Position numbers and translations under genes: made by a program. From positions 1 to 64,000 of the IMG/VR virus record IMGVR_UViG_3300008108_000023: 64,000 nt of DNA; one strand, 5' to 3'. Positions 21,454 to 54,540 of the stretch are shown one piece after another. The stretch is from a virus. Lineage: Duplodnaviria; Heunggongvirae; Uroviricota; Caudoviricetes. Each line of letters begins with the position of its first letter. Position 1 is the first letter of the stretch. A model generated the notes under the pieces. The model ran no database searches. It saw only the letters and a program-made list of their open reading frames with translations, and was not told the DNA's origin.

Positions 21454-21488
21454 CAAAAAACCCCTCTTTCGAGGGGTTCTTTTTATTT
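21454..21488. terminator. bidirectional rho-independent terminator (CCCCTC-TTTC-GAGGGG flanked by A- and T-runs)
   Basis: G/C hairpin immediately after the stop of 21483..22334, with A-run on one side and T-run on the other. Confidence 0.65.
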
Positions 21489-35306: not shown

Positions 35307-36632
35307 TTAATTACTTAAGGGTGCTTTAATCGATGGGTGTGATTGATAATTTTCGATTTGAAAATCCTTATTTTCCAAATGAGTTATTAAAGATGAGTCT
35401 TCAGATAATGATTTATAAAATTCATCGGTCTTCATATGTTTTAGTTTGGGTAATTTATAAGGTTCTCTTGTGTATCGTGGTATTTTATATATCTCATAAT
35501 ATTCAGACATACCTCCACCAAATGGTGCTAAGTCTTTCAACGCACTTTTATAACCATTAGGACCCATCGCCTCTTTTAACATACCTTCTCTCTCTTCATG
35601 TGTATACTTTCTACCGATTTGTTCTCTTGCTTGTTCAACATGGTTACTATACAAATGAGTATCACCTAAATTACCAATCAACTCATCAGGTACCATATTT
35701 ACTTCTTTAGCAATAATCTCAAGTAACAAACCGTAAGAAGCAATATTGAATGGTAGACCTAAGAATGTGTCTACTGAGCGTTGATTCCACATTAAAGAGA
35801 TTGCTCGTTTAGGAACTCTTAAACTATCCATGTGAACATCGTGATAATCACTACTTTGATTTAAAGGGTCTTTTGTTGAGTTATAATAATTAATCCTTTC
35901 ATCTAAACTCAACTCTCTCGTATAAACTTGAAATCCATAATGACAAGGTGGAAGAACCATTTGGTCCAGCTCTCCAACATTCCAAGCATTGACCATTAAT
36001 CGTCTTGAGTCTGGATTTGTTTTAAGGTCGTTGATTAGGTTTGTGATTTGGTCTATTGAATTGTTTTGGTATTCTATTTTGACACCATACTTGGTAACAT
36101 CTTCACCGATTTCAATTGCTTTTAGTACTCTGTGTTGGTCAGAACCTTTTACATCCTTTAAGTCGTAATTAGTCACATTCTTTCTACCCCATCTTCTCCA
36201 TTGCTTACCATACACAGGTCCGAGGTCACCCCACTTCTTAGCAAACTCATCATCGGTTTTTATTTTGTTGATGAATTCTTCTTTTGTTAATCGAAATCCT
36301 AACTCTAACATTTTTTCTTTTGACATATTAGGTAAGATTTTGGCATCTTCAATTAGATAGTTCTTATACGCATCACCATCCCAAATATGACAATTGTTAT
36401 CAACAAGGAACTTGATGTTTGTATCACCACGAAGGAACCATAACAATTCGGTTACCATCGTCTTCCACGCCATTTTCTTGGTTGTAAGTAATGGAAACCC
36501 ATCGGACATTTTATGACGGATTGTATAACCAAAAATAGATTTGGTTCCTGTACCTGTACGGTCTTTCTTTTCTACCCCATAATCTATAATAGTTTGGAGT
36601 AAGTCTGTGTATTGTTTATCTAATTTGTTCAT
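35307..36632 (-). CDS. thyA: thymidylate synthase (ThyA-type) with large insertions
   Basis: DRTGTGT, DLGPVYGKQWRRWG, NAWNVGELDQMVLPPCH, QRSVDTFLGLPFNIASY (the substrate-specificity Asn is retained) and DTHLYSNH motifs; 441 aa versus about 265-320 for typical ThyA. Confidence 0.85.
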   Translation of the reverse strand: MNKLDKQYTDLLQTIIDYGVEKKDRTGTGTKSIFGYTIRHKMSDGFPLLTTKKMAWKTMVTELLWFLRGDTNIKFLVDNNCHIWDGDAYKNYLIEDAKILPNMSKEKMLELGFRLTKEEFINKIKTDDEFAKKWGDLGPVYGKQWRRWGRKNVTNYDLKDVKGSDQHRVLKAIEIGEDVTKYGVKIEYQNNSIDQITNLINDLKTNPDSRRLMVNAWNVGELDQMVLPPCHYGFQVYTRELSLDERINYYNSTKDPLNQSSDYHDVHMDSLRVPKRAISLMWNQRSVDTFLGLPFNIASYGLLLEIIAKEVNMVPDELIGNLGDTHLYSNHVEQAREQIGRKYTHEEREGMLKEAMGPNGYKSALKDLAPFGGGMSEYYEIYKIPRYTREPYKLPKLKHMKTDEFYKSLSEDSSLITHLENKDFQIENYQSHPSIKAPLSN

Positions 36633-37792: not shown

Positions 37793-38221
37793 TTAAGGGT
37801 TGACATCGTTTTGTTCAGAATCTCTTATGTCAATTAATTTTTGAATTCTACTCCTACCTTTTTCACCAATTGGTACCGGATTACCTTCTTCATCAATCCT
37901 AACAAACCTTATGTTTGTTTTCAAGATGACAATTTGGTTACCTGTGTAAACATTATGTGCTCTTGCTTCCATATACAAGGTAACTGAAGTATTCCCTAAT
38001 TTACTTGGTGACCCGTAAATTTTAATCAACTGACCCTCTTTGGCTGGTTTTTCAAAAAAACATTTATCAATTGATACGGTAACTAATCTTGGTGAATCAC
38101 ACAATTGCATGGAGTATCCCGCAGCCGCCGCGTCAATCCACGCTAAAAGTTTTCCACCGAATAAATTTCCGTGGAATCCTAAATCCGACTTTTTTATGGG
38201 GTGTGAATTCAAAAATTCCAT
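37793..38221 (-). CDS. hotdog-fold acyl-CoA thioesterase (YciA/4HBT-like)
   Basis: GNLFGGKLLAWIDAAAAGY... region typical of acyl-CoA thioester hydrolases. Confidence 0.7.
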   Translation of the reverse strand: MEFLNSHPIKKSDLGFHGNLFGGKLLAWIDAAAAGYSMQLCDSPRLVTVSIDKCFFEKPAKEGQLIKIYGSPSKLGNTSVTLYMEARAHNVYTGNQIVILKTNIRFVRIDEEGNPVPIGEKGRSRIQKLIDIRDSEQNDVNP

Positions 38222-38569: not shown

Positions 38570-39694
38570 TTATTCTTCTTCATCTTTTCGATAACTTTCC
38601 AAGAGTTCCTCCCCTGAAAGTGTACCGTATTTATTTACAATTTTTTCGGTGTCTATTTCAACATTCATCATGTGATGAACATTATTTAATTCTTCGGCTA
38701 ATGATAAACTATCACTAATCACTTTAACGATTTTATATGGGTCCGCGTGTGATGCTGGTCTCCTGTCTTCAAGATAACCCTTCCATGTCTCACCAACGGA
38801 TTTTGGTACACGGATAGATGCACCTCTGTCTGAGACACCCCAACTAAATTTATCAATAGATTGTGTCTCAAAATGACCTGTTAATCTCAAATGGTTATCA
38901 GAACCATAAGAGTCAATATGTTCTTGTGTTCTTGATTCAAAAGACCTAAAAATTGCATTGAAGTATTGTTCACCACCCTCTTCTCTCATTTTTTGATTTG
39001 AGAAATTTGTATGTAAACCTGAACCGTTCCATTCTCCGTGGGTCATCGGTTTGGGATGTAACTCAATAGAACGACCATATTTCTCAGCAATTTTATGTAA
39101 AAAATATCTACTCATCCATAAATCATCAGAAGCGGCAATTTTACCTGTTGCAAAAATTTGGTATTCCCATTGACCTAATGCAACCTCTGAATTGGTTCCC
39201 TCCACATTGATGTCATATTTTAAACACATGTTCAAATGTTCATCAGAAATATTTCGACCAACAATATGTCCACCTACACCACAATAATAAATTCCTTGAC
39301 CGTCAATGATACCATTTCTTTCAAATCCAAGAATTGGATTATTATGTGAAGAACGAATAAAATATTCCTGTTCAAATCCAACCCAAAAATTTACATCTTC
39401 CTCACCTACTTTTGCTCTATGATTTGATGGATGAATTTCATTATTACCATCTAAAACCTCACATAATACATATACTGTATCAAGTGAACTATTTGTATGA
39501 TATAATTTTACTGGCTTAAGATAACAATCTGAAAAGTTACCTTCCGCTTGTTTAGTTGAGCTTCCGTCAAACCCCCAATTGGGGATGTGTTTCAATTCAA
39601 ATGGTGCCGGTAGGTCCACAATTTTTATTTTACTTCTGAGATTTGGCTCAGGGGAATACCCATCAAGCCATACGTATTCTACTTTTGTTTTCAT
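38570..39694 (-). CDS. glnA: glutamine synthetase, type II (eukaryote-like GS)
   Basis: GS signature WGFDGSSTKQAEGNFSDCYL and ATP-site KPMTHGEWNGSGLHTNFS, plus RGASIRVP; the 374-aa length fits GSII rather than GSI/GSIII. Confidence 0.85.
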   Translation of the reverse strand: MKTKVEYVWLDGYSPEPNLRSKIKIVDLPAPFELKHIPNWGFDGSSTKQAEGNFSDCYLKPVKLYHTNSSLDTVYVLCEVLDGNNEIHPSNHRAKVGEEDVNFWVGFEQEYFIRSSHNNPILGFERNGIIDGQGIYYCGVGGHIVGRNISDEHLNMCLKYDINVEGTNSEVALGQWEYQIFATGKIAASDDLWMSRYFLHKIAEKYGRSIELHPKPMTHGEWNGSGLHTNFSNQKMREEGGEQYFNAIFRSFESRTQEHIDSYGSDNHLRLTGHFETQSIDKFSWGVSDRGASIRVPKSVGETWKGYLEDRRPASHADPYKIVKVISDSLSLAEELNNVHHMMNVEIDTEKIVNKYGTLSGEELLESYRKDEEE

Positions 39695-39900
39695 TTTTTA
39701 TAATATATGTTTTTCTGTATCTGAATACCGACCATAAAAATTAAGAATCTCAAAGCCAAACCCCAGCTTGGTGAGGTTGCACCGGTTTCAAAAAACGTGT
39801 CTTTACGGTAGTAAAATATGGGAGTTGGTAAAAGAAACCAATGGTATTTCTTTCTTATTACAAAAAAATCCGTGATGTATTTCTTTTCTTTATTTGACAT
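39691..39900 (-). CDS. small membrane protein
   Basis: 69-aa ORF; start overlaps the glnA stop. Confidence 0.4.
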   Translation of the reverse strand: MSNKEKKYITDFFVIRKKYHWFLLPTPIFYYRKDTFFETGATSPSWGLALRFLIFMVGIQIQKNIYYKK

Positions 39901-40010
39901 TTTTTTTCTTTTTTAAATAATCTAAAACTATATTGAATGAACCAAGAGAAATTATACCAAATCCAAAATATTTTTCAATCTCGGGATTACTGGTGTTCAT
40001 TCCGTATTTT

Positions 40011-40280: not shown

Positions 40281-40676
40281 ATGATAAAGTCAAATATTTA
40301 TAAAAATATGTCAGTGATTATTAATAATACAAAGTTCCCTGCGGAATACCTATCCGAACCTGAAGAAATTAGTCAAGGTATGATGGGTAGAGATAATTTA
40401 AATGGTTGTATGGTTTTTAATATGGGTGGTGTTGGTCACCATTCTTTTTGGATGAAAAACTGTTTAATACCTTTGGATATTGTTTTTGTATTGAAAAATA
40501 GAATCAGTAAAATACATAGAAATTGTGAACCCGCTGGTCAAAATGAATTGAACCCAAAAAGATACACCGGCATAGGTGACCATGTTATTGAGTTTCCCGC
40601 CGGTGTTACTGATAAATTTAAAGAAGGTGACCGAGTTAATATGTATTTGGGAACACCTATGAATCCTGTCCGTTAA
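40281..40676 (+). CDS. DUF192 (COG1430)-family protein
   Basis: ISQGMMGR...GMVF...HSFWMKNCLIPLDIVFV...GDRV pattern matches the DUF192 consensus. Confidence 0.6.
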   Translation: MIKSNIYKNMSVIINNTKFPAEYLSEPEEISQGMMGRDNLNGCMVFNMGGVGHHSFWMKNCLIPLDIVFVLKNRISKIHRNCEPAGQNELNPKRYTGIGDHVIEFPAGVTDKFKEGDRVNMYLGTPMNPVR

Positions 40677-40678
40677 TT

Positions 40679-41533
40679 TTATTCTTCAAACATTACCAGT
40701 TGTTTCTTTTGGTTATCATAATCAATCAATCTCTGTTGAGATATCTTTGTGTAAGATTCTGATAACTCAAAACCAATATAATTTCTATTCAGCTTCTTAG
40801 CTGACAAAGCGGTGGTTCCACTTCCTGAAAAACAATCAACAATCAGGTCATTTTGATAGGAAAGTATTTTTATTGCTTTCATTGGGATGTCCATGGAGAA
40901 TGTGGCTTTAGTTAAAGATTTTGTGTCGTTGAAGTATTTCCATTGACCAAAGACTAATTCCATGAATTCGTTTTTGTCTTTATCTGAATAAACCCTTTTG
41001 TTTTTAAAATTACCTTCCTCGTTTTCGACCTCAATCTGATTATAAGACCATTGAGATATACCTTTTTCTTTCTTTTTGTAATCTTTCTTATATGCAAGAA
41101 TTACACATTCTTTTGGATTGTATATGTATGGTGATGATGGTGACATCCAAGAACCCCAAGCGGTTGTTTTAGAACGGTGTGGAGAATCCTCCTCTAAGTC
41201 CACAACACCAAAGAATCCAAAACCAATCTCTTTCATCATCTGCCAATATTCAGATACTAAGAAAATTCTCCCACCTCTTTCTCTAACGTTTATTTCATAT
41301 GGTATATTCAAGGCAATTCTACCATCATCTTTTAATGTACGGTAAACTTCGGATAACCATTTCTTACACCACTCAAAATACTCATCCATCGGAGCATCGT
41401 CTTTGTGCACATCATAACTAATACCGACATTGTACGGTGGACTCGTAACAAAGAGGTCTACAGTACCGTCATTTAACTCCTTAAACAGTTCTAAGCAGTC
41501 ACCCTGATAAATTTTATTCATTTCCATTGACAA
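40679..41533 (-). CDS. beta-class DNA methyltransferase (N4-cytosine/N6-adenine; SPPY)
   Basis: Motif IV DLFVTSPPYNVG N-terminal and motif I DCFSGSGTT C-terminal (PF01555-like order). Confidence 0.8.
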   Translation of the reverse strand: MSMEMNKIYQGDCLELFKELNDGTVDLFVTSPPYNVGISYDVHKDDAPMDEYFEWCKKWLSEVYRTLKDDGRIALNIPYEINVRERGGRIFLVSEYWQMMKEIGFGFFGVVDLEEDSPHRSKTTAWGSWMSPSSPYIYNPKECVILAYKKDYKKKEKGISQWSYNQIEVENEEGNFKNKRVYSDKDKNEFMELVFGQWKYFNDTKSLTKATFSMDIPMKAIKILSYQNDLIVDCFSGSGTTALSAKKLNRNYIGFELSESYTKISQQRLIDYDNQKKQLVMFEE

Positions 41534-42126: not shown

Positions 42127-43584
42127 ATGATTACAATAGGTTACAGTACAAGAGAGTCCAACCCAAAATTTCAAGAATATTTAAAAAAAACTTGTGGACA
42201 CCCCAAAGTTCAAGTTATTGAAAAAGTAAACAATGGTGAAAAAAGTCTTTCACAAACTTACAATGAAATTATTCAAGAGTCGATTCATGATATTGTCGTA
42301 CTTTGTCATGATGACATTTACTTTAATACGACTTCGTGGGGTAGAAAATTAGTCAAACATTTTGAAGAATCTGACTACGGGATTCTCGGTGTTGCCGGTA
42401 CAACCAATATTCATGAGAGTGGTAGGTGGTGGACAGATAATACCAAAATGGTTGGTATTGTTAATCATGAAAATGAGGGTAAAAAATGGGAATCGAGATA
42501 TGCAAATGGAATCCCAAATTCAATTCACGAAGTTTGTTTAGTGGATGGTTTATTCATTGGAATCCACAAAAACAGAATAAAACACACTTTTGATGAGTCA
42601 GTACCGGGTTTTCATTTTTATGATATGGTATTCTGTACTAGCAATCACTTAAGTGAGGTAAACATCGGTGTTATATACAACATAAGAATCACTCACAAAT
42701 CAATCGGAATGACCAATGATTCTTGGGAAAAGAATAGGGAATTTTACATTGAAAAATTTAAAGAGAACCTACCAATTAATATAACACCAAAAATTGATTA
42801 TGACATAACCAAACCAAAACAGTTTAAAGATAAATTTAATTTAATAGTTCAAACATCAAACGATAATGAAAATTTAATTCAGTTTTTTGAAAACATAAAA
42901 AAATTACCAGTGTTTGATAGTTTACAGATTTCACTCATCTCGACGGATACCAATATAGACAATATTAGAGAATTTGAATCTGAAAATATTAAAATTTACG
43001 AGGGTTTTTTTGATACATTAAATAAAAACTTATCAGTACTGAAATGGGATGAATCGTTTATGGAATCAAAAACAGATTTGTTATTTTTCAGTAATGATAC
43101 TGTTACCGTATTGAACGACGTTTTCTCAAGTATGTATTCAATATTTAAGAGTGAAAAAAATACTTTTGGGTGCGTCTTTCCTACAGTATTAGAAAACGAC
43201 CGAACAATTTTTTCAAATGGATTGGATATAGTTCAAAACAACGAACAGTTCAATTTAATTTTTAAAAACAAATCATCTTTTTTCAATATTTTACACGGAC
43301 ACTTTCCAAACAATTTTGGTAGTATTAGTGACTTTTTTGCCACTACATCTACAAATTTAAAAATGATTGATTGGTTTGATATTAATTTAGAAACATCAAT
43401 TTATAACTTAGATTTTGCGTTGAAAACTTTACTTAAAAAACGTAAAACATTCATTGACACAAACAGTGTGGTAATGATTGATATGGCATCAAAATTTGAA
43501 AAGGTTGATGTTGAATTAAAACAAGTCTTAGGTCAGTACATAAACTCACCTGAAATTAGAAAAAATATCAAACAATTAAGATGA
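42127..43584 (+). CDS. glycan-operon protein 1 (possible glycosyltransferase)
   Basis: 485-aa first ORF of the plus-strand operon; VLCHDDIYF DxD-like motif; weak. Confidence 0.55.
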   Translation: MITIGYSTRESNPKFQEYLKKTCGHPKVQVIEKVNNGEKSLSQTYNEIIQESIHDIVVLCHDDIYFNTTSWGRKLVKHFEESDYGILGVAGTTNIHESGRWWTDNTKMVGIVNHENEGKKWESRYANGIPNSIHEVCLVDGLFIGIHKNRIKHTFDESVPGFHFYDMVFCTSNHLSEVNIGVIYNIRITHKSIGMTNDSWEKNREFYIEKFKENLPINITPKIDYDITKPKQFKDKFNLIVQTSNDNENLIQFFENIKKLPVFDSLQISLISTDTNIDNIREFESENIKIYEGFFDTLNKNLSVLKWDESFMESKTDLLFFSNDTVTVLNDVFSSMYSIFKSEKNTFGCVFPTVLENDRTIFSNGLDIVQNNEQFNLIFKNKSSFFNILHGHFPNNFGSISDFFATTSTNLKMIDWFDINLETSIYNLDFALKTLLKKRKTFIDTNSVVMIDMASKFEKVDVELKQVLGQYINSPEIRKNIKQLR

Positions 43585-44360
43585 TAAAAATTGTATCGGG
43601 ATTTACAGAAAAAGGTGGTTCTACCACTTTTTTTATAAACTTAACAAATTTCTTAAATGAAAATGGTATTGATTGCACATTTTACGGTAATCAGAATTAC
43701 CATTTAGACAAATGTAAATCAGGGAACATTGAAAAAGATTTAAAGTATGAATCTGATGATATTGTAATTACCCATTTTTTACAACTACAGGAAAGACCAC
43801 CTGTTAAAAAAGTTATTTTGTCTTGTCATGAAAAATGGTGGTTCCCTGTTGGTAAAATTAAACAGTATTGGGACCTGTGCGTGTTTTTACATGAAGAGCA
43901 TCGAAAATATCACTCGGATTACAGGGGTGATTATGTAATAATACCAAACATCAAAGAAAATTTAATTATTTCAAATAAAGAGCTGGTAAGAAATATTGCA
44001 GGAATTATTGGTACAATTGAAGACAGAAAACAGACCCATGTGTCAATACAAAGAGCATTAAAAGACAGGTGTGAAAAAATCTATTTGTTCGGTCACATCG
44101 GTGACCAAAACTATTTTGACAAATTGGTAAAACCTTTAATGAATCCAAGAGTAATTCATTACGGTCACACCACCAATAAACAAGAAATGTACGATATGAT
44201 TGGTAAGGTATATCACTCATCAAAGGGTGAGGTTGCTTGTTTGGTTAAAGATGAATGTTATTTAACCGGTACAGAGTTTTATGGTAATGAAGAGACTATG
44301 AATGAAGTTTCTAAATTAAGTAACGAAGAGATATTAACACTTTGGAAAAACATATTTTAA
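43581..44360 (+). CDS. glycan-operon protein 2
   Basis: 259-aa ORF, ATGA overlap with upstream gene. Confidence 0.5.
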   Translation: MIKIVSGFTEKGGSTTFFINLTNFLNENGIDCTFYGNQNYHLDKCKSGNIEKDLKYESDDIVITHFLQLQERPPVKKVILSCHEKWWFPVGKIKQYWDLCVFLHEEHRKYHSDYRGDYVIIPNIKENLIISNKELVRNIAGIIGTIEDRKQTHVSIQRALKDRCEKIYLFGHIGDQNYFDKLVKPLMNPRVIHYGHTTNKQEMYDMIGKVYHSSKGEVACLVKDECYLTGTEFYGNEETMNEVSKLSNEEILTLWKNIF

Positions 44361-44361
44361 A

Positions 44362-45084
44362 ATGAAGATACACGCACATATACTGTCATGGAATGAAGAA
44401 AAAATATTACCATTCACATTGGATTACTATAGTACAATCTGTGAAAAAATATTCATATACGATAATATGTCAACGGACTCCTCTGATGAGATTTATAAGA
44501 GGTACCCAAAAGTTGAGGTTATTAAATGGGATAGTGGTAATGAAATAAATGAAATTAATTACGTAAACATTAAATCCGAAGAGTATAAAAAAAGAAGTAG
44601 AGGTCAGGGTGTTGATTGGGTTATAGTTTGTGACTGTGATGAGTTTATATACCATGAAAATCTTATGGATAAACTTCAAGAGTACAAAGAAATGGGTATA
44701 ACCGTCCCAAGAATAGACGGTCACGACATGGTTAGTACTGAATTTCCAATATACGACGGTGAATTCATTACAACAAAAATTAAAACAGGTTCACAAACGT
44801 ATGAACCAATGTGTAAAAATATAATTTTTCATCCTGATTTAGATATAAAATACGGCATTGGTGGTCACAGTTTTAATTCTGTTGATGGTAAATTTTCGGA
44901 TGAGCGGGAAATAAAACTTCTTCACTATAAATTCTTGGGTAAAGACTACGTGAAGAACATTTACATTTCAAGAGCAAAGAGATTGTCATCGTTCAATAAA
45001 CAACATAAATTCGGTGAACATTATTTTAATTTACCATTCAATTACATGGACAGCATGTTAAAAGAAAATTATCAAGTTATATGA
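44362..45084 (+). CDS. glycosyltransferase-like (GT-A, DxD)
   Basis: ILSWNEEKILPF...IYDNMSTD...VCDCDEFIYHE resembles Glyco_tranf_2_4-type GT-A proteins. Confidence 0.55.
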   Translation: MKIHAHILSWNEEKILPFTLDYYSTICEKIFIYDNMSTDSSDEIYKRYPKVEVIKWDSGNEINEINYVNIKSEEYKKRSRGQGVDWVIVCDCDEFIYHENLMDKLQEYKEMGITVPRIDGHDMVSTEFPIYDGEFITTKIKTGSQTYEPMCKNIIFHPDLDIKYGIGGHSFNSVDGKFSDEREIKLLHYKFLGKDYVKNIYISRAKRLSSFNKQHKFGEHYFNLPFNYMDSMLKENYQVI

Positions 45085-45902
45085 GGAAAATACTTATATC
45101 GGATTTTACCATTAAAGAAGTACCTCACGGTGGTTCTGAATGGGTGAATCAAGTTTTAATTGATAGATTTAATCTTGAGTTTGAATATTCAAACCAAGTC
45201 AAGTCATTTGATTACAACGCCCTGTATATTATATCAAATATTTCTTTGATGAACCCAAACTTGGTTAATCAAATACAAAATTTGAACTACGTCATTATTG
45301 AAAACGATTATAAAATATGTGCAAGTAGACACCCATGGAGATATACCGACAACATAATTCCGATTGAGGAAAGAACCAACTATTCTCTTTACCGGAATGC
45401 AAAAGCGGTATTTGTTCAAACAACCGACCACATGAACGTTTATCTTAAAAACGATGTTGTTGCTAATTTTATAAATCTGAATAGTTCGATATGGTCAAAT
45501 GAGGACTTAGAATTATTGAGGAATTTAAATAAATCCAACAATGTTAAAAACGACAAATATTCTGTTTACTATACAAATAATTGGATAAAGAACACCCAAG
45601 GTAGTCTGAAGTATTGTTCTGAAAATAAATTACCGGTCCATATTCTTAAAGAATCTAAAGACAGAGTTGAATTTTTAAGTAATATGGCCAAATGTAAAGG
45701 TATTGTGTTTTTCCCGATAGCAAGAGAAACTTTTTGTAGACTGGTTGTTGAGGCAAAATGTTTAGGTTTGGAAGTAATAACGACACAAAATTATGGTGCA
45801 AGTTTAGAAGAATGGTTTAATAGGTTATCAGGTGATGAATTAATTGATTTCTTAGAAACTAACACTTTAAAAAATTTAGAAATCATTTCAACTTATATAT
45901 GA
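45081..45902 (+). CDS. glycan-operon protein 4
   Basis: 273-aa ORF, ATGA overlap at both ends. Confidence 0.5.
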   Translation: MRKILISDFTIKEVPHGGSEWVNQVLIDRFNLEFEYSNQVKSFDYNALYIISNISLMNPNLVNQIQNLNYVIIENDYKICASRHPWRYTDNIIPIEERTNYSLYRNAKAVFVQTTDHMNVYLKNDVVANFINLNSSIWSNEDLELLRNLNKSNNVKNDKYSVYYTNNWIKNTQGSLKYCSENKLPVHILKESKDRVEFLSNMAKCKGIVFFPIARETFCRLVVEAKCLGLEVITTQNYGASLEEWFNRLSGDELIDFLETNTLKNLEIISTYI

Positions 45903-46891
45903 TATTATTTTGTTACGGCACAAGACCTGAGTATATTAAAATAAAAAAATTAATAGAAATGTGTGGGGAAAGTATTCCCCATAAAATTTTATATGTTACC
46001 CAACACAAAGATATTGTATTGGGTGATTTTGATTATAAATTATCCATTGATGATACGTGTGAAAATAGATTGGATAGTATTATGTCATCCGTATTTTTAA
46101 ATTTTAAAAAAGAATTTTTGGAAGGGGTTACACATATACTTATCCAAGGGGACACCGCAACCGCTCTTTCATTATCCCTAATAGGATTACACCATAAAAA
46201 AGAAGTGATTCATTTAGAAGCGGGATTACGGACATATGACTACAATCACCCTTACCCCGAAGAAATGTATCGGCAGTTAATTAGTAGAATTTCAAACTAT
46301 AATCTTTGCCCAACAGAAAGTAACAAGATGAACTTAGAAAATGAAAAAGTTCAGGGTAAAAATTTTGTAGTTGGCAATACCGTATTAGATAATCTTAATA
46401 AAGAAAATATTACATACGAAAATAAAGTCTTAATCACTTTACATAGAAGAGAGAATCATGAGATGATGTCGGAGTGGTTTGATGTTATCAATCGATTAGC
46501 AAAGAATAATCCTGAATTAAAATTCATTCTTCCAATACACCCAAACCCAAACGTCATAAAACACAAACATATATTGACACATGTTGATGTTATTGAACCA
46601 TTAACCCATGATAAATTTATTGAGGAATTCAAATCCTGTAAATTACTAATTTCAGATAGTGGGGGTGTTCAAGAAGAGGCGTCGTTCCTAAATAAGAAAG
46701 TTATTGTATGTAGAGAAAAAACTGAGAGACCTGAGTCCTTGGGTAAAACGTCTTTTATATGTAAAAAACCCATTGACTTAGAAGGTATTTTTTACGATAT
46801 TATTAACGATTTCCAAACAGAATATGATTGTCCTTTTGGTGATGGTAATTCTTGTGAAAGAATCATTGAAATATTTAGAAAAATTGTATGA
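45899..46891 (+). CDS. UDP-N-acetylglucosamine 2-epimerase (WecB/NeuC family)
   Basis: FCYGTRPEYIKI, HLEAGLRTYD, DSGGVQEEA, ERPE and FGDGNSCERI motifs collinear with E. coli WecB. Confidence 0.85.
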   Translation: MILFCYGTRPEYIKIKKLIEMCGESIPHKILYVTQHKDIVLGDFDYKLSIDDTCENRLDSIMSSVFLNFKKEFLEGVTHILIQGDTATALSLSLIGLHHKKEVIHLEAGLRTYDYNHPYPEEMYRQLISRISNYNLCPTESNKMNLENEKVQGKNFVVGNTVLDNLNKENITYENKVLITLHRRENHEMMSEWFDVINRLAKNNPELKFILPIHPNPNVIKHKHILTHVDVIEPLTHDKFIEEFKSCKLLISDSGGVQEEASFLNKKVIVCREKTERPESLGKTSFICKKPIDLEGIFYDIINDFQTEYDCPFGDGNSCERIIEIFRKIV

Positions 46892-47616
46892 GTATAACGG
46901 TAATATTAAATGGGTATAAAAGACCACATGTTCTCCAAAAACAATTGGAATCAATTAGAAATCAAAGTGTCCAACCCGAATCAATTTTATTTTGGCAAAA
47001 TTCTGGTTCTCAATTTGATGAGGGACTAACCAAAGATTTAATTCACGCATCTTGTAATAGTAATTTAGGTGTGTGGGCAAGATTTGCATTTGCTTTAAAT
47101 GCCAACACAGAATATATTTGTGTTTTTGATGATGACACAATACCGGGTAAACTATGGTTAGAAAACTGTCTAAACACCATGAAAATTCAAGAAGGTTTAT
47201 TAGGAACTATCGGTGTAAAATTTCACACAAAAAACTCTTATTGGCCAGCAACAAGAGTCGGTTGGGACCAACCTAACGAAGAAATTGAAAAGGTCGACAT
47301 TGTTGGTCACTCGTGGTTCTTTAAAAGAGAATGGTTATCGATATTTTGGAGAGAATTACCTGAAATCAATCAGAGTAAATTAGTTGGTGAGGATATGCAC
47401 TTTTCATATACATTACAGAAATACGCAAATATCGGAACTTACGTTCCTCCCCATCCTAAAGAAAATAGAGAAATGTGGGGTAGTATACCAGAATATGCAT
47501 GGGAACATGGAACTGATTCCAACGCAATTTCCGTAAATCATTCAAATATGAATTTAATGGGTGAAGTTTACCGTGGGTATGTAAATAAAGGATTTAAGAC
47601 AATATTAAATGATTGA
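46888..47616 (+). CDS. glycosyltransferase-like (DxD)
   Basis: ITVILNGYKRP...IRNQS and FDDDTIPG motifs. Confidence 0.55.
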   Translation: MSITVILNGYKRPHVLQKQLESIRNQSVQPESILFWQNSGSQFDEGLTKDLIHASCNSNLGVWARFAFALNANTEYICVFDDDTIPGKLWLENCLNTMKIQEGLLGTIGVKFHTKNSYWPATRVGWDQPNEEIEKVDIVGHSWFFKREWLSIFWRELPEINQSKLVGEDMHFSYTLQKYANIGTYVPPHPKENREMWGSIPEYAWEHGTDSNAISVNHSNMNLMGEVYRGYVNKGFKTILND

Positions 47617-48328
47617 AAAGTATATTGAAGATTTTAATTCGTTTTGGGAAAAGATAGATAGTCGAACTAACTTTTCTTTTGTTAGATATGCCGATGGTGA
47701 AGTGATGTTAATGAATAATTCACCGATAGAAAAGAATACACAAGCGTATCAAAACGATAAATGGTTTTCGAGTGGGGGACAAACCAAATTAGGTGTGGAT
47801 TTAAATGAATGTATAGGGTTGAACGACCCAAATTTTTATTTTGCAATATCCTCCAAAACTGATAGTATTAGAGACTATAATTTTTTATATGATAGAATAC
47901 AAAATAAATCAAACATTACATTTGCTAACCTATGGATTAACGCAAATTACAAAGAAAATATATCAAGAATAAGAAATATAAATCGAGATGTTGTTTTAAT
48001 TTGTAATGAAAATTGTGATTTAAAAAACATACCATTTAGTGTATCAGAATTTGTACCGTTCCCTAATGATTGTGTAAACTATTGGGAAGAACATAGAGAT
48101 TCGTTTTTAGAAAAAATATACAATGTTTCTTCAAAATATAAAGATACTTTATTTATCGTATGTTGTGGACCAACATCTGCTGTTATCATAAAACATATGT
48201 TTACAAATAATAGTAATAACACTTATATTGATTTTGGTTCCGCATTAGATGTATTCATACATAATAAAATAACTAGACCATACATGTATGAAGGGTCACA
48301 ATATCATAATCACATATCAAAATTTTAA
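47609..48328 (+). CDS. glycan-operon protein 7
   Basis: 239-aa ORF. Confidence 0.5.
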   Translation: MIEKYIEDFNSFWEKIDSRTNFSFVRYADGEVMLMNNSPIEKNTQAYQNDKWFSSGGQTKLGVDLNECIGLNDPNFYFAISSKTDSIRDYNFLYDRIQNKSNITFANLWINANYKENISRIRNINRDVVLICNENCDLKNIPFSVSEFVPFPNDCVNYWEEHRDSFLEKIYNVSSKYKDTLFIVCCGPTSAVIIKHMFTNNSNNTYIDFGSALDVFIHNKITRPYMYEGSQYHNHISKF

Positions 48329-48334
48329 TTCAGT

Positions 48335-48925
48335 ATGAATAATGATTTTTGTGTCATAGTACAAGGACCTTCAGACTACGTTAAAGAATTAAAAAACGCT
48401 TGGACTGGTTATGATTTGATTTGGTCAACATGGCAAGGTGAAGAATCAAAATACGATACTAATGATGTTGTCTTATTCAACAGTATTCCACACGATAGGG
48501 GTGTACAAAATATAGCACTACAAAAAATATCAACTTTGAATGGAATAATGAAAGCCAAAGAAATAGGTTACAACAGAGTCCTTAAATGGAGAAGTGATTT
48601 ACTACCATCTAATGCAAATAGATTAGTTTCCACATTTAAAAAAGAGTGTGTAAATTTTTTGACTTGGCATAATGAAGGAAAATATTTTGTTGATTATTTT
48701 GTGGAGGGTGAAATAGATACGGTGTTTGATATTTGGAATGTATCTACCATACACGATGAGTATTCGGAAAAAATAATCACGGAAAATATAATATCACTTA
48801 ACTATAAAAATATAAACTTTATGGGTGGCGAATTAAGTAATGATAATGAAATTTTTTGGTTAAAACGAAATATTAATTTGTCCACATATAAAGACGCACC
48901 ATGTTATAGTATGGTGGTGATTTAA
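48335..48925 (+). CDS. glycan-operon protein 8
   Basis: 196-aa ORF. Confidence 0.5.
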   Translation: MNNDFCVIVQGPSDYVKELKNAWTGYDLIWSTWQGEESKYDTNDVVLFNSIPHDRGVQNIALQKISTLNGIMKAKEIGYNRVLKWRSDLLPSNANRLVSTFKKECVNFLTWHNEGKYFVDYFVEGEIDTVFDIWNVSTIHDEYSEKIITENIISLNYKNINFMGGELSNDNEIFWLKRNINLSTYKDAPCYSMVVI

Positions 48926-48936
48926 AAATTATAAAA

Positions 48937-49671
48937 ATGATAGATAATTCAAAATTTATTGACGACGCATTTACTCAAGATGAATTAAATAGGGGTGCCT
49001 TTACCGATTTGAATGGTAGATGTCCATTATGGACAACAAAAATGATTAATGTTATAAAAGATAAAATTGACTTTAATGATGTCAACACAATATTAGATAT
49101 TGGGTCAAGAGATGGTTGCCAAAGTTTAGAGTTAAATAGATGGTTTCCACATGCTAAAATATATGCGTTTGAACCAGTAAAAGAAAACTACGAATTTACA
49201 GTTAAGAACGTTGAGAAAATTAATAACATAAAAGTTTACCAATACGCAATAAACAATTACAACGGTAAAACTAAATTTTACGAAGTTTATAATGGAAATG
49301 TGGGTGCCAGTTCTTTATTACAGACAACAAACCACTGGCGTTCATCTCAGTGGGCCCAAAAGGAAACTGAGGTTGACTGTATTGTTCTTAGTGATTGGTT
49401 AAAAGAAAATGATATTAAAAGTGTTGATTTGATTTGGATGGATGTTCAAGGTGCAGAAAATATCGTATTAGACTCTCTAAAAGAATATTTAAATGATGTA
49501 AAAATAATAACCACCGAAGTAGGGTTACAGGAATTATATCGTGGTTCTACAAGTAAATCTGAACTAGATGAAAAACTAAATAGGTTTATACCAATAGACG
49601 AGTCGCCAGAATCTTCAAACACAGAAATGGATGTGGTTTATATCAACAAAAATTTAACACCTTATGGATAA
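48937..49671 (+). CDS. FkbM-family SAM-dependent methyltransferase
   Basis: LDIGSRDGCQSLEL...IYAFEPVKENYEF...NGNVGASSL matches the FkbM domain. Confidence 0.7.
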   Translation: MIDNSKFIDDAFTQDELNRGAFTDLNGRCPLWTTKMINVIKDKIDFNDVNTILDIGSRDGCQSLELNRWFPHAKIYAFEPVKENYEFTVKNVEKINNIKVYQYAINNYNGKTKFYEVYNGNVGASSLLQTTNHWRSSQWAQKETEVDCIVLSDWLKENDIKSVDLIWMDVQGAENIVLDSLKEYLNDVKIITTEVGLQELYRGSTSKSELDEKLNRFIPIDESPESSNTEMDVVYINKNLTPYG

Positions 49672-50365
49672 TAAAATTTGTTACGTTACTTATACAAATT
49701 CAAAATGTTCAGATATTTTGGATATGTTCTTGTTAGAACAAAAAAAGTACACAAACTTACCGATGTATTTTATTACAGATGTAATGATACCCGAGCAAAT
49801 TTGTTTTTTATATGAAAATCAAGAACCTTATTATGAATCATGGTTAAAGTGTTTATCTTCAATACCATATGACTATTTTATATACTTACAAGAAGACTTT
49901 ATTCTTTATAACAATGTCAGTCATGATAAAATTTTTAATTACCTCGATTTTTTACATGATAACCAAGAATATTCGTTCATTAGATTGTTAAAATCGGGGT
50001 CTGTTAAAGATAAAAAAATTTATGAGACCTTATATGAAATAGAATCCGACAATAAAGATATATTTTCTATGCAACCAACTATTTGGAAAAAAGATGATTA
50101 CATTAAAATCATGAAAGGTACCAAAAATAATATGTGGTTAGAGAATGAAACATATAGAAATTTTATGATAGAAAACAACATCAAAGGTTTATATCATTAC
50201 GATGGTGAAAACAAAAGGGGGTTGAATCATTTTGATAGTTCTGTTTATCCATATATAGCAACGGCTTTAGTTAGAGGTAAATGGAATTTATCTGAATACC
50301 CTAATGAACTCTCTCCATTAATAAATGAATATGAAATAAACGTAAATGTTCGGGGGATACATTAA
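49664..50365 (+). CDS. glycan-operon protein 10
   Basis: 233-aa ORF. Confidence 0.5.
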   Translation: MDNKICYVTYTNSKCSDILDMFLLEQKKYTNLPMYFITDVMIPEQICFLYENQEPYYESWLKCLSSIPYDYFIYLQEDFILYNNVSHDKIFNYLDFLHDNQEYSFIRLLKSGSVKDKKIYETLYEIESDNKDIFSMQPTIWKKDDYIKIMKGTKNNMWLENETYRNFMIENNIKGLYHYDGENKRGLNHFDSSVYPYIATALVRGKWNLSEYPNELSPLINEYEINVNVRGIH

Positions 50366-50367
50366 TA

Positions 50368-51042
50368 ATGAAAATTGTTCTATCTTTTTACACCAACAAT
50401 AAATTTAGTAACACCGTTCAAAAATTAATCGGATATTATAATTCACGTGGTTTCAATGATATCCGAGGATTTAAATCTGAAGATGTTAAGAAAGGTATTT
50501 TTTATGAAAACCATAAAGAAATATTAGATTGTGAAACGGGTGATGGATTTTGGTTGTGGAAACCAAAAATTATTTTAGATATTTTGAATGAATTAGAAGA
50601 TGGGGATGCATTAATTTATACCGATGCCGGTGATTTAGTTGATGTTGATTATAATACGATTGCAAATTATTTGAAAGATAATGATTATTATTTTACAAAT
50701 TGGAATGGAAATCGTTGGCCTCAAAAAATATGTACAAAAAGAGACTGTTTTATCTTGATGGATTGTGATGAAGAAAAGTTTCATGAAACACCACAGATGG
50801 AAGCAGGATTTATCATCATTAAAAAAACCAAACAAATGATGGAATTTGTTCACGATTATTTTAAGTATTGTAGTATTAAACAGATAGTTGACAATGAACC
50901 AAATCAAATTGGTGAGAATTTTCCAAATTGGCAATTCCATAGAAATGACCAAAGTATATTAACTAACTTGGTTGTGAAACATAATTTAAAATTTGATTAT
51001 TGTCTCGATTATAGAATAAAATACAACGTATATATACCATGA
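50368..51042 (+). CDS. glycan-operon protein 11 (possible glycosyltransferase)
   Basis: 224-aa ORF; DGFWLWKP and YTDAGD motifs; weak. Confidence 0.5.
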   Translation: MKIVLSFYTNNKFSNTVQKLIGYYNSRGFNDIRGFKSEDVKKGIFYENHKEILDCETGDGFWLWKPKIILDILNELEDGDALIYTDAGDLVDVDYNTIANYLKDNDYYFTNWNGNRWPQKICTKRDCFILMDCDEEKFHETPQMEAGFIIIKKTKQMMEFVHDYFKYCSIKQIVDNEPNQIGENFPNWQFHRNDQSILTNLVVKHNLKFDYCLDYRIKYNVYIP

Positions 51043-51800
51043 AATTTATTGCATTAAATTATAATTATGACTTAAATAAAATGTCCCAAATCGGTCGGAA
51101 ATGGGCGTTTGATGTCTACAAAAATAAAGAGTTTATATCTGATTATTCATCAGCATCTTATGCTTCATTTATTGATAAGAATAGAAAAAGTATTTTACAT
51201 CTTTATACTGATGATGTTGAGGGTATGAAAGAAAAAATGAACAAGTATAACATTGACCAAGACAGAATTATTTATATTGATTACACGGAACAACTTACCA
51301 AATACAATGAAAGTCTTAATTATAGTTTTACAGTTTTAAATGATTTTATTAATTATGCAAAATCAGAAACTGAGTACACTGTAAAAATCGATAATGATTT
51401 ATTTTTTCATTCGGAATTACCACAAATTGATGATAATTCTATTATGGTTTGGAAGTATGAAAGAATCGTTAGGAATGGTGACCCGAGATGGGGTGAAATA
51501 AAAATATGTAAACAGGTTACAAATGATTTAGATTTTAAAATTTATAATTTAGGTATTTTTGGGTTGCCCGCGGATTACAATATTCACCAAGCAAAAAAAA
51601 TTATGGAAGATATGATATCGGTAGACATTTCAGATGTGACTGATACAGACTCGAAGATTTATCATTGTTGTGAGCAAACGGCAAATAATTGGATTTTTCA
51701 CAAAGAAAATTATAACGTGATTGAAACGTATAATTATGTTGACCACCTGTTTGATAGAAAAGGTGATTGTATAGAATTATCAAAATATCTTTTAAAATGA
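51039..51800 (+). CDS. glycan-operon protein 12
   Basis: 253-aa ORF. Confidence 0.5.
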   Translation: MKFIALNYNYDLNKMSQIGRKWAFDVYKNKEFISDYSSASYASFIDKNRKSILHLYTDDVEGMKEKMNKYNIDQDRIIYIDYTEQLTKYNESLNYSFTVLNDFINYAKSETEYTVKIDNDLFFHSELPQIDDNSIMVWKYERIVRNGDPRWGEIKICKQVTNDLDFKIYNLGIFGLPADYNIHQAKKIMEDMISVDISDVTDTDSKIYHCCEQTANNWIFHKENYNVIETYNYVDHLFDRKGDCIELSKYLLK

Positions 51801-52564
51801 AAACATCAGTAGTATTGACAATTCACAACAAGGAATTCTTAATGAACCAAGTGGTGAGTAACTTGGTAAATAATTTATCAGAACTGAATGACCAGATTGT
51901 AATAGTTTTTGATGGTTGTACAGATAATAGTGAAGGTATTGTTCGTGACAATTTAAAGAGAGTTAGTAATAAAAAAATTGATTACCTGTATGCCGACAAT
52001 GTTTTTGAAACCAAAGCAAATAATATTGGTCTAAAGTCTGTTATAAATGATTATGTGGTCTTAATCCAAGATGATATGGTTGTCACAGAAAAAGATTTTG
52101 ATAAGAGGATGTTGGAACCGTTCATAAAATATAGTGATGTGTTCGCTGTAACATCTTTTGTTGCTCACAATAACATCTATAATGAACAAACAAAACAAAT
52201 AAATTACATCGATATTGCACATAAAGATAACTCATCAAGAGATATTTTTTATGCTAGAGAATATGGTAACAGAGGTCCACTAATGTACAACTATAATGAC
52301 GTGGTCAAATTAAATTTTTTAGACGAATATTTTTCACCCCAAAATTATGATGATATGGATATGTCCATGAGAGCATTCAAAGAACTCGGAAAAGTGTCAG
52401 GTTTATATACGATAGATTATATTTCCGAACCTGGATGGGGGACCACTAGACAAAAAAATCAATCATTACATAATAATTTAGTTTACGTAAACGCAGCAAA
52501 AATACTTGAAAAACACAGGGATTTATTGTATAATAAAGACAAATATAAAGAGGATAGAGAATGA
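51797..52564 (+). CDS. family-2 glycosyltransferase
   Basis: MKTSVVLTIHNKE... GT2 N-terminus and LIQDDMV DxD; start chosen at the ATGA overlap (51797) rather than ORF-track 51767. Confidence 0.65.
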   Translation: MKTSVVLTIHNKEFLMNQVVSNLVNNLSELNDQIVIVFDGCTDNSEGIVRDNLKRVSNKKIDYLYADNVFETKANNIGLKSVINDYVVLIQDDMVVTEKDFDKRMLEPFIKYSDVFAVTSFVAHNNIYNEQTKQINYIDIAHKDNSSRDIFYAREYGNRGPLMYNYNDVVKLNFLDEYFSPQNYDDMDMSMRAFKELGKVSGLYTIDYISEPGWGTTRQKNQSLHNNLVYVNAAKILEKHRDLLYNKDKYKEDRE

Positions 52565-53178
52565 ATAATATAGAGCTAAAGACATTTATGATTAATCATA
52601 ATGTTAATATCCATGGTGTGATTCACGTTGGTGCACATTTTGGTCAAGAAGATGAAGTTTATAAGGAATTGGGTATTTCAAACAGAATATACTTTGAACC
52701 TCTATCGTCTAATTTTGAGACCTTAAAAGAAAAAATAGATGATGACGCAATTTTAGTTAAACTGGCGTTAGGTAATGAAAAGAGAAAAGTTTCTATGTTT
52801 GTAGAATCCTTTAATAAAGGTATGTCATCCTCAATATTAGAACCGAAATTACATTCTGTTCAATTTCCTCATATCGTTTTTGATTCTGTAGAAGAAGTTG
52901 AAATGGATAGATTGGATGATTTAAATTACGATTTTTCAAAATACAACATGATGAATATCGATGTTCAAGGTTTTGAATTAGAGGTTCTCAAAGGTTCCGT
53001 GAATACATTAATCAACATTGACTACGTTATTGTAGAAATAAACAGAGCCGAATTATATAAAGGTTGTCCACACTTTGATGAAATAAACAATTGGATGACA
53101 CATCATGGGTTTACCTGTGTTGAACAATTTTGGTGGGGTAATAATTTTGGTGAGGGATTTTTTAAAAAAATAAAATGA
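52561..53178 (+). CDS. FkbM-family SAM-dependent methyltransferase
   Basis: IHVGAHFGQEDEVY...IYFEPLSSNFETL...GMSSSI matches the FkbM domain. Confidence 0.65.
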   Translation: MNNIELKTFMINHNVNIHGVIHVGAHFGQEDEVYKELGISNRIYFEPLSSNFETLKEKIDDDAILVKLALGNEKRKVSMFVESFNKGMSSSILEPKLHSVQFPHIVFDSVEEVEMDRLDDLNYDFSKYNMMNIDVQGFELEVLKGSVNTLINIDYVIVEINRAELYKGCPHFDEINNWMTHHGFTCVEQFWWGNNFGEGFFKKIK

Positions 53179-54236
53179 AACGAGTATTAGTATTGGGTGG
53201 TGGCGGATTTATTGGTGGTCACCTAGCAAAAAGATTAAAAAATGAAGGAAACTACGTAAGAGTAGTTGATATAAAAAGACACGAATATTTTGATGAGAAA
53301 GACTTTTGTGACGAATTCTTAATATATGACCTTACGGACCCAAAAAACGTATCATCAGTAATGAGATTAGAAGAATTAAATGGTACGATATTACCGTTTA
53401 ATTATTACAAACAACCATATTCAACTGAGGTCCCATTTGATGAGGTTTATCAATTAGCTGCCGATATGGGTGGTGCTGGTTACATCTTCACTGGTGAAAA
53501 TGACGCGAATGTTATGCACAATTCTGCAATGATAAATTTAAATGTTGTAAATGAATCAGTGAAGACAAAAGTTAAGAAGATTTTTTATTCATCATCGGCA
53601 TGTATGTATCCTGAACACAATCAATTAGACCCTAACAACCCAAATTGTGAAGAATCATCAGCATATCCCGCGAATCCTGATTCAGAATATGGTTGGGAAA
53701 AACTTTTTTCGGAAAGGTTGTACTTGGCTTTTCACAGAAATCACGGTTTGGATGTTCGAATTGCTAGATTTCATAACATATTTGGTCCATATGGTACGTG
53801 GAAAGGTGGTAAAGAAAAAGCACCAGCAGCTATGTGTAGAAAAGTTGCCGAAATGTTAGACGGTGGAGAAATTGAAGTTTGGGGTGATGGTCAACAGACT
53901 CGTTCATTCTTATATGTGGATGAATGTGTTGAAGCGGTTTTAAGACTAATGAGACAAGACTCTTTTTTGGGTCCTGTAAACATTGGTTCTGAAGAGAAAG
54001 TAACAATTAATGATTTGGCTCAAATGGCTATAGATATTTCAGGTAAAGAAATTTATATCAGAAATATTGGTGGGGAAGAATTTAAACAGAAGTATGGATA
54101 TAAATGTCCTGTTGGTGTGAGGGGAAGAAATTCAGACAATAAATTATACCACGAAAAAATAGGTTGGGTTGTTAGTGAACCTCTGTTCTATGGAATGGAA
54201 AAAACCTATAAATGGATTAATAGTTTAGTTAAATAA
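53175..54236 (+). CDS. GDP-mannose 3,5-epimerase-like NAD-dependent epimerase (SDR)
   Basis: GGGGFIGGHL Rossmann motif; SSSACMYPE, RFHNIFGPYGTWKGGKEKAPAAMCRK, WGDGQQTRSF, VDECVEAVLRL, PVNIGSEEKV and GVRGRNSDN blocks closely parallel plant GME (as recalled). Confidence 0.8.
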   Translation: MKRVLVLGGGGFIGGHLAKRLKNEGNYVRVVDIKRHEYFDEKDFCDEFLIYDLTDPKNVSSVMRLEELNGTILPFNYYKQPYSTEVPFDEVYQLAADMGGAGYIFTGENDANVMHNSAMINLNVVNESVKTKVKKIFYSSSACMYPEHNQLDPNNPNCEESSAYPANPDSEYGWEKLFSERLYLAFHRNHGLDVRIARFHNIFGPYGTWKGGKEKAPAAMCRKVAEMLDGGEIEVWGDGQQTRSFLYVDECVEAVLRLMRQDSFLGPVNIGSEEKVTINDLAQMAIDISGKEIYIRNIGGEEFKQKYGYKCPVGVRGRNSDNKLYHEKIGWVVSEPLFYGMEKTYKWINSLVK

Positions 54237-54268
54237 AAAAGGGGGTTATTGACCCCCTTCTTTTTTTT
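54235..54268. terminator. strong bidirectional terminator (AAGGGGGT-TATTG-ACCCCCTT + T9)
   Basis: Perfect 8-bp G/C stem between the converging epimerase gene and the minus-strand glutaredoxin-like gene, flanked by A6 and T9. Confidence 0.75.
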
Positions 54269-54539
54269 CAATGTATTTTAATATAATTGCTAACGCCTCG
54301 TCGTCCCCATTAAAATCTTTTTCGGGACAAAAAAAGGGTCCTTTACCAGTGTCGTCTTTTTTAATGTAAAAGGCGGGTAAATATTCATTACCCGTTTGTT
54401 CAATTACTTTATTCCAAATCTCTTTATTCTTACCAACTTCAACTTCTCGGTAAGGTAATGATTCTTTTTGGAGTCTCTCTTTTAATCTTTTACAACCTCC
54501 ACAACCCTCAAGTGTAAATAGAAGTAATTCATTCGCCAT
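54246..54539 (-). CDS. glutaredoxin/NrdH-like redoxin (CGGC)
   Basis: LFTLEGCGGCKRLKERL: CxxC in thioredoxin-fold context, 97 aa. Confidence 0.5.
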   Translation of the reverse strand: MANELLLFTLEGCGGCKRLKERLQKESLPYREVEVGKNKEIWNKVIEQTGNEYLPAFYIKKDDTGKGPFFCPEKDFNGDDEALAIILKYIEKKEGGQ

Positions 54540-54540
54540 A

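Follow-up and report, generated by a model that had tools for sequence, protein, structure and literature searches.

A glutamine synthetase (GS) gene is carried on the minus strand, at positions 38570 to 39694, of a 64,000-nucleotide stretch of viral DNA (Duplodnaviria; Heunggongvirae; Uroviricota; Caudoviricetes) that comprises positions 1 to 64,000 of the IMG/VR record IMGVR_UViG_3300008108_000023 and is referred to here as the window. We consider it probable that this gene encodes a catalytically competent enzyme of the GlnII type, and that it serves as an auxiliary metabolic gene of a moraphage-like tailed phage of approximately 290 kb, with a member of the Bacteroidota as the most likely host. 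Judged from its sequence, the product is a type II glutamine synthetase (GSII) of the bacterial GlnII kind, which is inherited in a large, monophyletic, virus-only clade under strong purifying selection.

Class and active site of the enzyme

A single open reading frame (ORF) occupies the GS position in the window, exactly where the preliminary description of this DNA had placed it. The gene and the parts of its product are as follows.

38570..39694, minus strand: GS gene, GlnII type; 374 amino acids plus stop, ATG start (from the ORF listing)
39449..39685, minus strand: N-terminal beta-grasp domain, residues 4-82 (Pfam PF03951), including D43 and S46
38696..39412, minus strand: catalytic domain, residues 95-333 (Pfam PF00120, residue mapping to human GS, PS00181 match)
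38573..38695, minus strand: C-terminal tail, residues 334-374; specific to the viral clade, acidic and predicted to be helical

Both Pfam domains that make up the two-domain architecture of GSII score above their gathering cutoffs, Gln-synt_N (PF03951) with 36.4 bits over residues 4-82 (cutoff 33.4) and Gln-synt_C (PF00120) with 62.9 bits over residues 95-320 (cutoff 24). In a phmmer search of PDB sequences the best match is GlnII of S. coelicolor (4BAX, 6.4e-82), with yeast Gln1 at 2e-80 and the fly, plant and mammalian enzymes at approximately 1e-73; the 16 best matches are all GSII (6e-82 to 4e-71), and the best GSI reaches only 6e-08. By these E-values a chance resemblance to GS is excluded. 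The GlnII model NF041605 is the top NCBIfam family (2e-96, 323 bits), whereas the GSI model TIGR00653 (GlnA, 1e-12) and the type III model TIGR03105 (4.5e-7) score 47.5 and 28.7 bits against cutoffs of 429 and 470. These weak scores and a length of 374 residues fit neither GSI, a dodecameric enzyme of approximately 440-470 residues bearing an adenylylation loop, nor GSIII, with approximately 730 residues. An AlphaFold2 (AF2) monomer model built from a shallow alignment of 40 sequences is of moderate quality (pLDDT 69.5, pTM 0.74), and a Foldseek search with this model returned 4BAX first (3.6e-30) and then GSII structures only. The Pfam, PDB, NCBIfam and Foldseek comparisons all favour GSII over GSI and GSIII, as the preliminary description had held. 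Its use of the 374-residue length as a sign of GSII does not stand, since that length is a coincidence, produced by a bacterial-type core of approximately 333 residues and a tail of 41.

The residues expected of a working enzyme were located through a HMMER alignment to human GS, covering positions 63-340 in human numbering. The metal ligands E108, E110, E170, E177, H228 and E309 correspond to human E134, E136, E196, E203, H253 and E338, and the ammonium-site residues D43, S46, Y137 and E276 to human D63, S66, Y162 and E305. The arginines that contact glutamate and phosphate (R270, R290, R295 and R311) and the ATP-site residues W104, N230 and S232 are identical to those of human GS. Loss of metal ligands had been named beforehand as the sign of a pseudo-enzyme; all six are present, together with the other substrate residues, and every mapped catalytic, substrate and ATP residue shows no variation among 40 aligned viral homologues. 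GSII enzymes are decamers of two stacked pentamers, and D43 and S46 are contributed to the active site of the neighbouring subunit. Residues 215-232 (KPMTHGEWNGSGLHTNFS) strictly match PS00181, which we take to be the PROSITE pattern for the GS ATP site. The median dN/dS, from pairwise NG86 estimates over 150 pairs of relatives, is 0.12 for the GS core and 0.16 for the tail, and a full-length GS ORF is present at 80 of 80 related viral loci, these being the best 80 kept out of 142 IMG/VR stretches that encode GS relatives. The enzyme is apparently catalytically competent, with an intact active site.

GS-like paralogues with an altered amine substrate are established, among them the gamma-glutamylpolyamine synthetases and the plant theanine synthetase. 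The phage protein could likewise be a gamma-glutamyl ligase that accepts a polyamine, ethylamine, methylamine or another amine metabolite and not ammonium. Its clade is divergent, sharing 57% identity at best with cellular GlnII and having the lowest GlnII hidden Markov model scores among the sequences tested; it has an unusual residue, F or Y in the viral clade, at position 54 within the first PROSITE signature region; it carries a clade-specific tail; and gamma-glutamylputrescine synthetase appears as a weak NCBIfam match. That match is negligible, however, at 24.8 bits against a cutoff of 650, and the four ammonium-site residues are all kept and do not vary in the clade, which makes a changed acceptor improbable.

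A virus-only clade and its C-terminal tail

Close relatives of the phage enzyme were found in viral DNA. At the 80 related loci the encoded proteins are 63-89% identical to it, and a metagenome protein database holds at least 120 clusters, formed at 90% identity, that are at least 68% identical to it. The identical protein is encoded on 36 contigs, the longest of 288,260 bp, and relatives lie on contigs of 213-322 kb. A survey of cellular genomes, with one genome for each of 185,579 GTDB species, gave best matches of only 50-57% identity and none above 57%. GlnII is nevertheless widespread in these genomes, occurring in Saprospiraceae, Cyclobacteriaceae, Chitinophagaceae, Flavobacteriaceae, Pirellulaceae, Verrucomicrobiota, SAR86 and MGII archaea. 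The earlier mention of a Bacteroidota GSIII is to be qualified in that GSII is at home in Bacteroidota as well; the genomes of the first four of these families, all Bacteroidota, encode GlnII.

A phylogeny, which the preliminary description had proposed among its checks, was run as a neighbour-joining tree of 242 sequences, comprising viral proteins, named bacterial and archaeal proteins, representatives at 50% identity drawn from a search of 1.84 billion proteins, and five PDB references; bootstrap support was obtained from 100 replicates of a 96-taxon subset with four eukaryotic references. The tree places the phage protein in an exclusively viral clade of its own beside bacterial GlnII. This clade is monophyletic in 95 of 100 replicates, and in 99 of 100 it is split, together with the named bacterial GlnII sequences, from eukaryotic GSII. 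The N-terminus agrees with this placement. Residue 3 of the phage protein is matched to residue 4 of Streptomyces GlnII (4BAX), whereas in most eukaryotic chains the start of the phage protein (residues 2-5) falls opposite residues 21-32, and in one chain of 423 residues opposite residue 71; the phage protein thus lacks the N-terminal extension of eukaryotic enzymes. By both branching order and N-terminus the protein falls outside eukaryotic-type GSII (GSIIe), and the label "eukaryote-like" that it had been given is misleading.

A search for the donor lineage singled out none, as Bacteroidota, Planctomycetota, Verrucomicrobiota, SAR86 and MGII archaea are all 54-58% identical to the phage enzyme over trimmed columns, and the viral clade lies outside the whole sampled bacterial group in the neighbour-joining tree. 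The gene has the same guanine-plus-cytosine (GC) content, 0.335, as the remainder of the window. The equal distance to all bacterial phyla and the matching GC content point to a long residence in phages.

The part of the protein that sets the viral clade apart is its C-terminus. Alignments to cellular GlnII, both the GTDB matches and the representatives at 50% identity, mostly stop at residues 322-335, and the tail formed by residues 334-374 is absent from nearly all cellular GlnII. Among 40 sequences of the viral clade, L336, M343, L364 and Y368 are invariant in the tail, and T339, H341, K355, S360, L365 and D371 are nearly so; many viral relatives extend it by approximately 25 further residues. 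The tail is acidic, with 12 D/E against 4 K/R, and AF2 predicts helices at 319-344, 349-356 and 361-373 with low confidence. It gave no match among PDB sequences, even at E=10. We regard the tail as probably a phage-specific addition that affects assembly, stability or regulation. A further proposal, which is tentative and in our view unlikely, is that the tail is a module invented by phages that changes the way GSII works, perhaps by holding the two pentamer rings together in the manner of the C-terminal "helical thong" of GSI, perhaps by freeing the enzyme from feedback or from control by the host, or perhaps by docking it onto a phage or host partner; if this were true, the viral clade would amount to a virus-specific subclass of GSII with a function of its own, and not to a borrowed host enzyme.

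A conserved tail of this kind also raises the question of whether the protein is mainly regulatory and catalysis secondary. It might, for instance, titrate proteins of host nitrogen signalling or disturb the GS of the host, and the tail would then be its interaction module. GS enzymes elsewhere do bind regulators, GlnR and TnrA binding GSI and GlnK binding archaeal GS, and the tail is acidic, predicted to be helical, virus-specific and under purifying selection. Yet the full active site is kept at a dN/dS of 0.12, which is unexpected if catalysis were dispensable; the tail resembles nothing in PDB; and no partner gene co-varies with GS besides a DNA methyltransferase gene and a DUF192 gene. 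A mainly regulatory or moonlighting protein is at least as improbable as one with a changed acceptor.

The phage, its host and the proposed role of the gene

The preliminary description had placed the gene in a phage-like context, and this is borne out by the genes that share its genome. The window encodes a UvrD-type helicase (phrog_1967), an Amidase_2 protein, endolysin-like and peptidoglycan-binding proteins, a 5'-3' deoxyribonucleotidase, a phosphoesterase, two DNA methyltransferases and a PcfJ-like protein. Scans of approximately 50 of its ORFs with PHROGs and Pfam found no capsid or terminase gene within the 64 kb, and no TerL, MCP or PolB gene in the window; upstream of the window start there are ORFans only. 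Contigs with identical genes extend past the window end, and the next 10 kb encode a ClpP-type head-maturation protease (phrog_94, 3.6e-35), a sigma factor (phrog_351, 1.7e-52), an SbcC-like nuclease, an exonuclease and a DnaG-like primase. In a relative whose GS is 70% identical, a collagen-like tail-fibre gene lies 7 kb upstream of the GS gene. By this gene content the GS-bearing genome is that of a tailed phage, and with the identical GS on contigs of up to 288,260 bp it is a jumbo phage of approximately 290 kb. A giant-virus (NCLDV) origin, considered on account of the "eukaryote-like" GSII and the contigs of approximately 300 kb, was rejected because of the peptidoglycan lysis genes, the Dam and N6/N4 methyltransferases, the sigma-70-family factor, the ClpP-type head protease and the prokaryotic phylogeny of GS.

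Although GSII is widespread in Bacteroidota, Planctomycetota and Verrucomicrobiota, the GS of the huge-phage record LR756501 looks recently captured and the window holds neither capsid nor terminase gene, it is very improbable that the gene is a recently captured host passenger or lies in cellular or giant-virus DNA misread as phage, given that the cellular survey found no homologue above 57% while viral relatives combine higher identity with conserved synteny, that the viral clade is monophyletic and the gene matches the window in GC content, that the head protease, sigma factor, endolysins and a bacterial-type gene organisation lacking Shine-Dalgarno (SD) motifs are found on the same genome, and that giant-virus glnA groups with eukaryotes and the window GS does not.

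Several features of the window bear indirectly, but consistently, on the host. The best cultured-phage matches of the helicase are in Bacteroides, Chryseobacterium and Flavobacterium phages, and those of the thymidylate synthase (thyA) in Flavobacterium phage immuto, which also shares a 150-bp patch at 92% nucleotide identity, and in Chryseobacterium and Cellulophaga phages. An SD-like motif stands before no more than 3 of 78 predicted genes, a rate equal to background; low SD use is established for Bacteroidota. Upstream regions of genes are enriched two-fold in TAnnTTTG, the -7 motif of Bacteroidota. The host is likely a member of the Bacteroidota, similar to Flavobacteriia. The 15 nucleotides upstream of start codons are 47% A.

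Purines, pyrimidines and amino sugars all draw nitrogen from glutamine in their synthesis. As an auxiliary metabolic enzyme of such a phage, GS would amidate glutamate with ammonium during infection, at the expense of ATP, and sustain a high level of glutamine for the amidotransferase steps by which these compounds are made. The demand would come from approximately 290 kb of DNA per virion and from phage glycans, for which the window carries a 12-kb glycan cluster with a WecB-like epimerase. The enzyme would also recapture ammonium, and it would presumably stand outside the transcriptional and post-translational nitrogen control of the host, which in Bacteroidota would act mainly on GSIII or GSI. 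Escape from that control is probable because the protein has no GSI adenylylation loop and the gene is not under host promoters. A phage that brings an unregulated GS with it can make virion production independent of the nitrogen status of its host, which is of relevance to nutrient cycling in nitrogen-poor waters; with the identical protein on 36 contigs and hundreds of relatives, such phages are apparently widespread. We infer a manipulation of host nitrogen assimilation, a role that the preliminary description suggested and that published papers propose as well.

A number of points weigh against a competent auxiliary enzyme of a Bacteroidota phage. The NCBIfam score of 323 bits is below the 500-bit cutoff of the NF041605 GlnII equivalog. 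Eight other GlnII-type sequences also fall below it, at 369-413 bits, in a comparison set of Saprospiraceae, Flavobacteriaceae, Pirellula, Rhizobium, Granulicella and other sequences with two huge phages; as a membership test this cutoff was set aside as non-diagnostic, since every bacterial GlnII tested fails it too. The pattern that we take to be PS00180 is missed by one residue, FDGSSTKQAEGNFSDCYL having F54 where a polar residue is required. Both PROSITE signatures had been reported in the gene; with the patterns as taken here, the second would stand as a strict match and the first as a near miss. The AF2 model is of moderate quality, and its confidence is low for the active-site loops and for the tail. 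As for the proposed physiological rationale, namely nucleotide and amino-sugar supply and escape from regulation, no glutamine amidotransferase was found beside the GS gene. Finally, GS is dispensable for the moraphage lineage, because only 9 of its 25 members carry it.

The neighbourhood of the gene, which lies in a long co-directional run of minus-strand genes, contains the following features.

35307-36632, minus strand: thyA, 441 amino acids
36632-37246: HAD-type phosphatase
37793-38221: 4HBT/YciA-like thioesterase
39691..39900, minus strand: ORF of 69 amino acids; its TGA stop overlaps the GS ATG (ATGA), and it has no Pfam or NCBIfam match
39951..39978, minus strand: sigma-70-like promoter candidate (TTGAAA, 16 nucleotides, TG-extended TATAAT; 11 of 12 consensus positions)
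40281..40676, plus strand: DUF192 gene (Pfam DUF192, 2.8e-18)
40679..41533, minus strand: N6/N4 DNA methyltransferase (Pfam N6_N4_Mtase, 3e-36; NCBIfam adenine-specific methyltransferase matches)

The 69-residue ORF is called as a gene on public contigs and has homologues at 9 of the 80 related loci, in the nearest relatives only. Co-transcription and translational coupling of this ORF with GS are probable, given the overlap of stop and start codons. The C-terminal half of its product is hydrophobic. The promoter candidate lies in the gap upstream of this ORF, and sigma-70-like sites in the region are as frequent as expected from shuffled sequence. A scan of the whole window at Rfam gathering cutoffs found no element, hence no glutamine riboswitch, and no tRNA genes were found in the 64 kb.

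The DNA methyltransferase gene adjoins GS at 72 of the 80 related loci and is its most conserved neighbour; the DUF192 gene is near GS at 45 of 80. In the window the DUF192 gene stands alone on the plus strand among minus-strand genes, 24 bp from the divergent orf81, and it keeps its place beside the methyltransferase gene at the same number of loci. The thyA, HAD phosphatase, DUF2452 and thioesterase genes accompany GS at only 4-8 of the 80 loci, those of the closest relatives. The genes of the "metabolic cluster" described earlier (thyA, HAD phosphatase and thioesterase) are therefore present as a local arrangement, and not as a conserved module.

The thyA gene encodes a genuine thymidylate synthase, with 305 bits against a cutoff of 108 for TIGR03284, and keeps the PPCH cysteine, the D...N dUMP motif and the C-terminal closure. 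A DNA hypermodification pathway, with thyA as dUMP hydroxymethylase and GS as amide ligase, was considered and removed because the thyA product passes the thymidylate synthase equivalog. The protein is oversized through three insertions, at residues approximately 153-190, 244-278 and 343-409. A 150-bp stretch of the gene (approximately 35909-36061, the PPCH region) is 92% identical in nucleotide sequence to Flavobacterium phage vB_FspM_immuto, the proteins being 54% identical overall, and may be a recombination patch or reflect shared codon usage.

Elsewhere in the window, a glycan-biosynthesis cluster of approximately 14 tightly packed, often overlapping genes occupies 42127-54236 on the plus strand, and the GC skew changes sign exactly over it. 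It encodes Glyco_tranf_2_5 and GT2 proteins, two Methyltransf_21 proteins, a WecB-like UDP-GlcNAc 2-epimerase (45899-46891; 209.9 bits, against a cutoff of 210.15) and an NAD-dependent epimerase/dehydratase (53175-54236). A second adenine-type methyltransferase, of the D12/Dam class, lies at 56221-57111 on the minus strand, the one at 40679-41533 being N6_N4/CcrM-like; the presence of two such genes suggests extensive self-methylation of the phage genome. Also on the minus strand are a gene for a 60-residue Hc1-like protein (PF07432, chlamydial histone H1-like; 59140-59322) and several further host-like genes, namely a weakly matching class I/II pyridoxal phosphate-dependent aminotransferase gene, CobD/HisC-like (14730-15839), genes for an SPFH/Band 7 protein (21483-22334) and an ABC_membrane_3 protein (1666-2508), and an adjacent pair encoding thioredoxin and glutaredoxin (54246-54846). 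A 441-residue K/E-rich protein with repeated CxxCG motifs (CDECGQG, CSECGS, CSECGTG) is encoded at 59864-61189 on the minus strand; it has no Pfam or PHROG match and is conserved on all contigs seen.

Comparison with known glutamine synthetases and large phages

The phage enzyme shares its fold, N-terminus and catalytic residues with bacterial GlnII, as represented by 4BAX and by the enzymes of Bacteroidota, Planctomycetota and Verrucomicrobiota; it differs from them in being only 43-57% identical, in belonging to its own viral clade and in bearing an extra acidic tail of approximately 40 residues. Eukaryotic GSII, such as human GLUL, yeast Gln1 and plant GS1 and GS2, is of the same class and has the same active site, with 36-41% identity in fold-search alignments, but carries an N-terminal extension of approximately 20 residues that the phage enzyme lacks. 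In a published tree, glnA of large phages likewise groups with prokaryotic homologues and that of giant viruses with eukaryotic ones.

The closest described phages are the moraphages (Perez-Hernandez et al., Arch Virol 2025, PMC12619734). They comprise 25 jumbo phages, chiefly of freshwater origin, whose genomes measure 200-307 kb and whose predicted hosts are Bacteroidota/Flavobacteriia, and GS is encoded by 9 of them. Their core includes a sigma factor, a prohead protease, an exonuclease subunit, a primase and glutaredoxin, and they encode many glycosyltransferases and Hc1-like histone-like proteins. The window and its flank share these core functions, the glycosyltransferases and Hc1, a likeness that is drawn from the published description. 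By the described gene content and the 288,260-bp contig, the phage is most likely moraphage-like. The type of GS, its phylogeny, the status of its active site and the tail do not figure in the passages of the moraphage account that were consulted.

Huge phages provide a second point of comparison. A preprint (HPGC, 10.1101/2025.02.27.640493) counts 248 GS genes across 247 huge phages, most of them freshwater or marine, and proposes the same role in nitrogen metabolism. The Mahaphage-size GenBank records LR756501/3, LR745206 and LR756502 (635-735 kb) encode GSII-type enzymes that are 43-54% identical to that of the window. The LR756501 enzyme (LR756501.1, 149789-150775) nests within GlnII of Saprospiraceae/Chitinophagales, which suggests recent capture from a host, and those of LR745206 and LR756502 form a separate clade. 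Because the window clade, LR756501 and the LR745206/LR756502 pair are separate in the tree, large phages have captured GSII at least three times independently. LR745206 and LR756502 share a thyA related to that of the window, with 45-57% identity.

GS genes of phages have thus been published for both moraphages and huge phages, and the identical GS protein has already been annotated as glutamine synthetase by the Joint Genome Institute (JGI); the gene described here is real, and it is not new. To these accounts the present analysis adds the assignment to bacterial GlnII, a virus-only clade under purifying selection, three or more acquisitions of GSII by large phages and the conserved C-terminal tail. 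The tail, the sole part of the enzyme for which we found no published description, is the obvious target for a first biochemical study.

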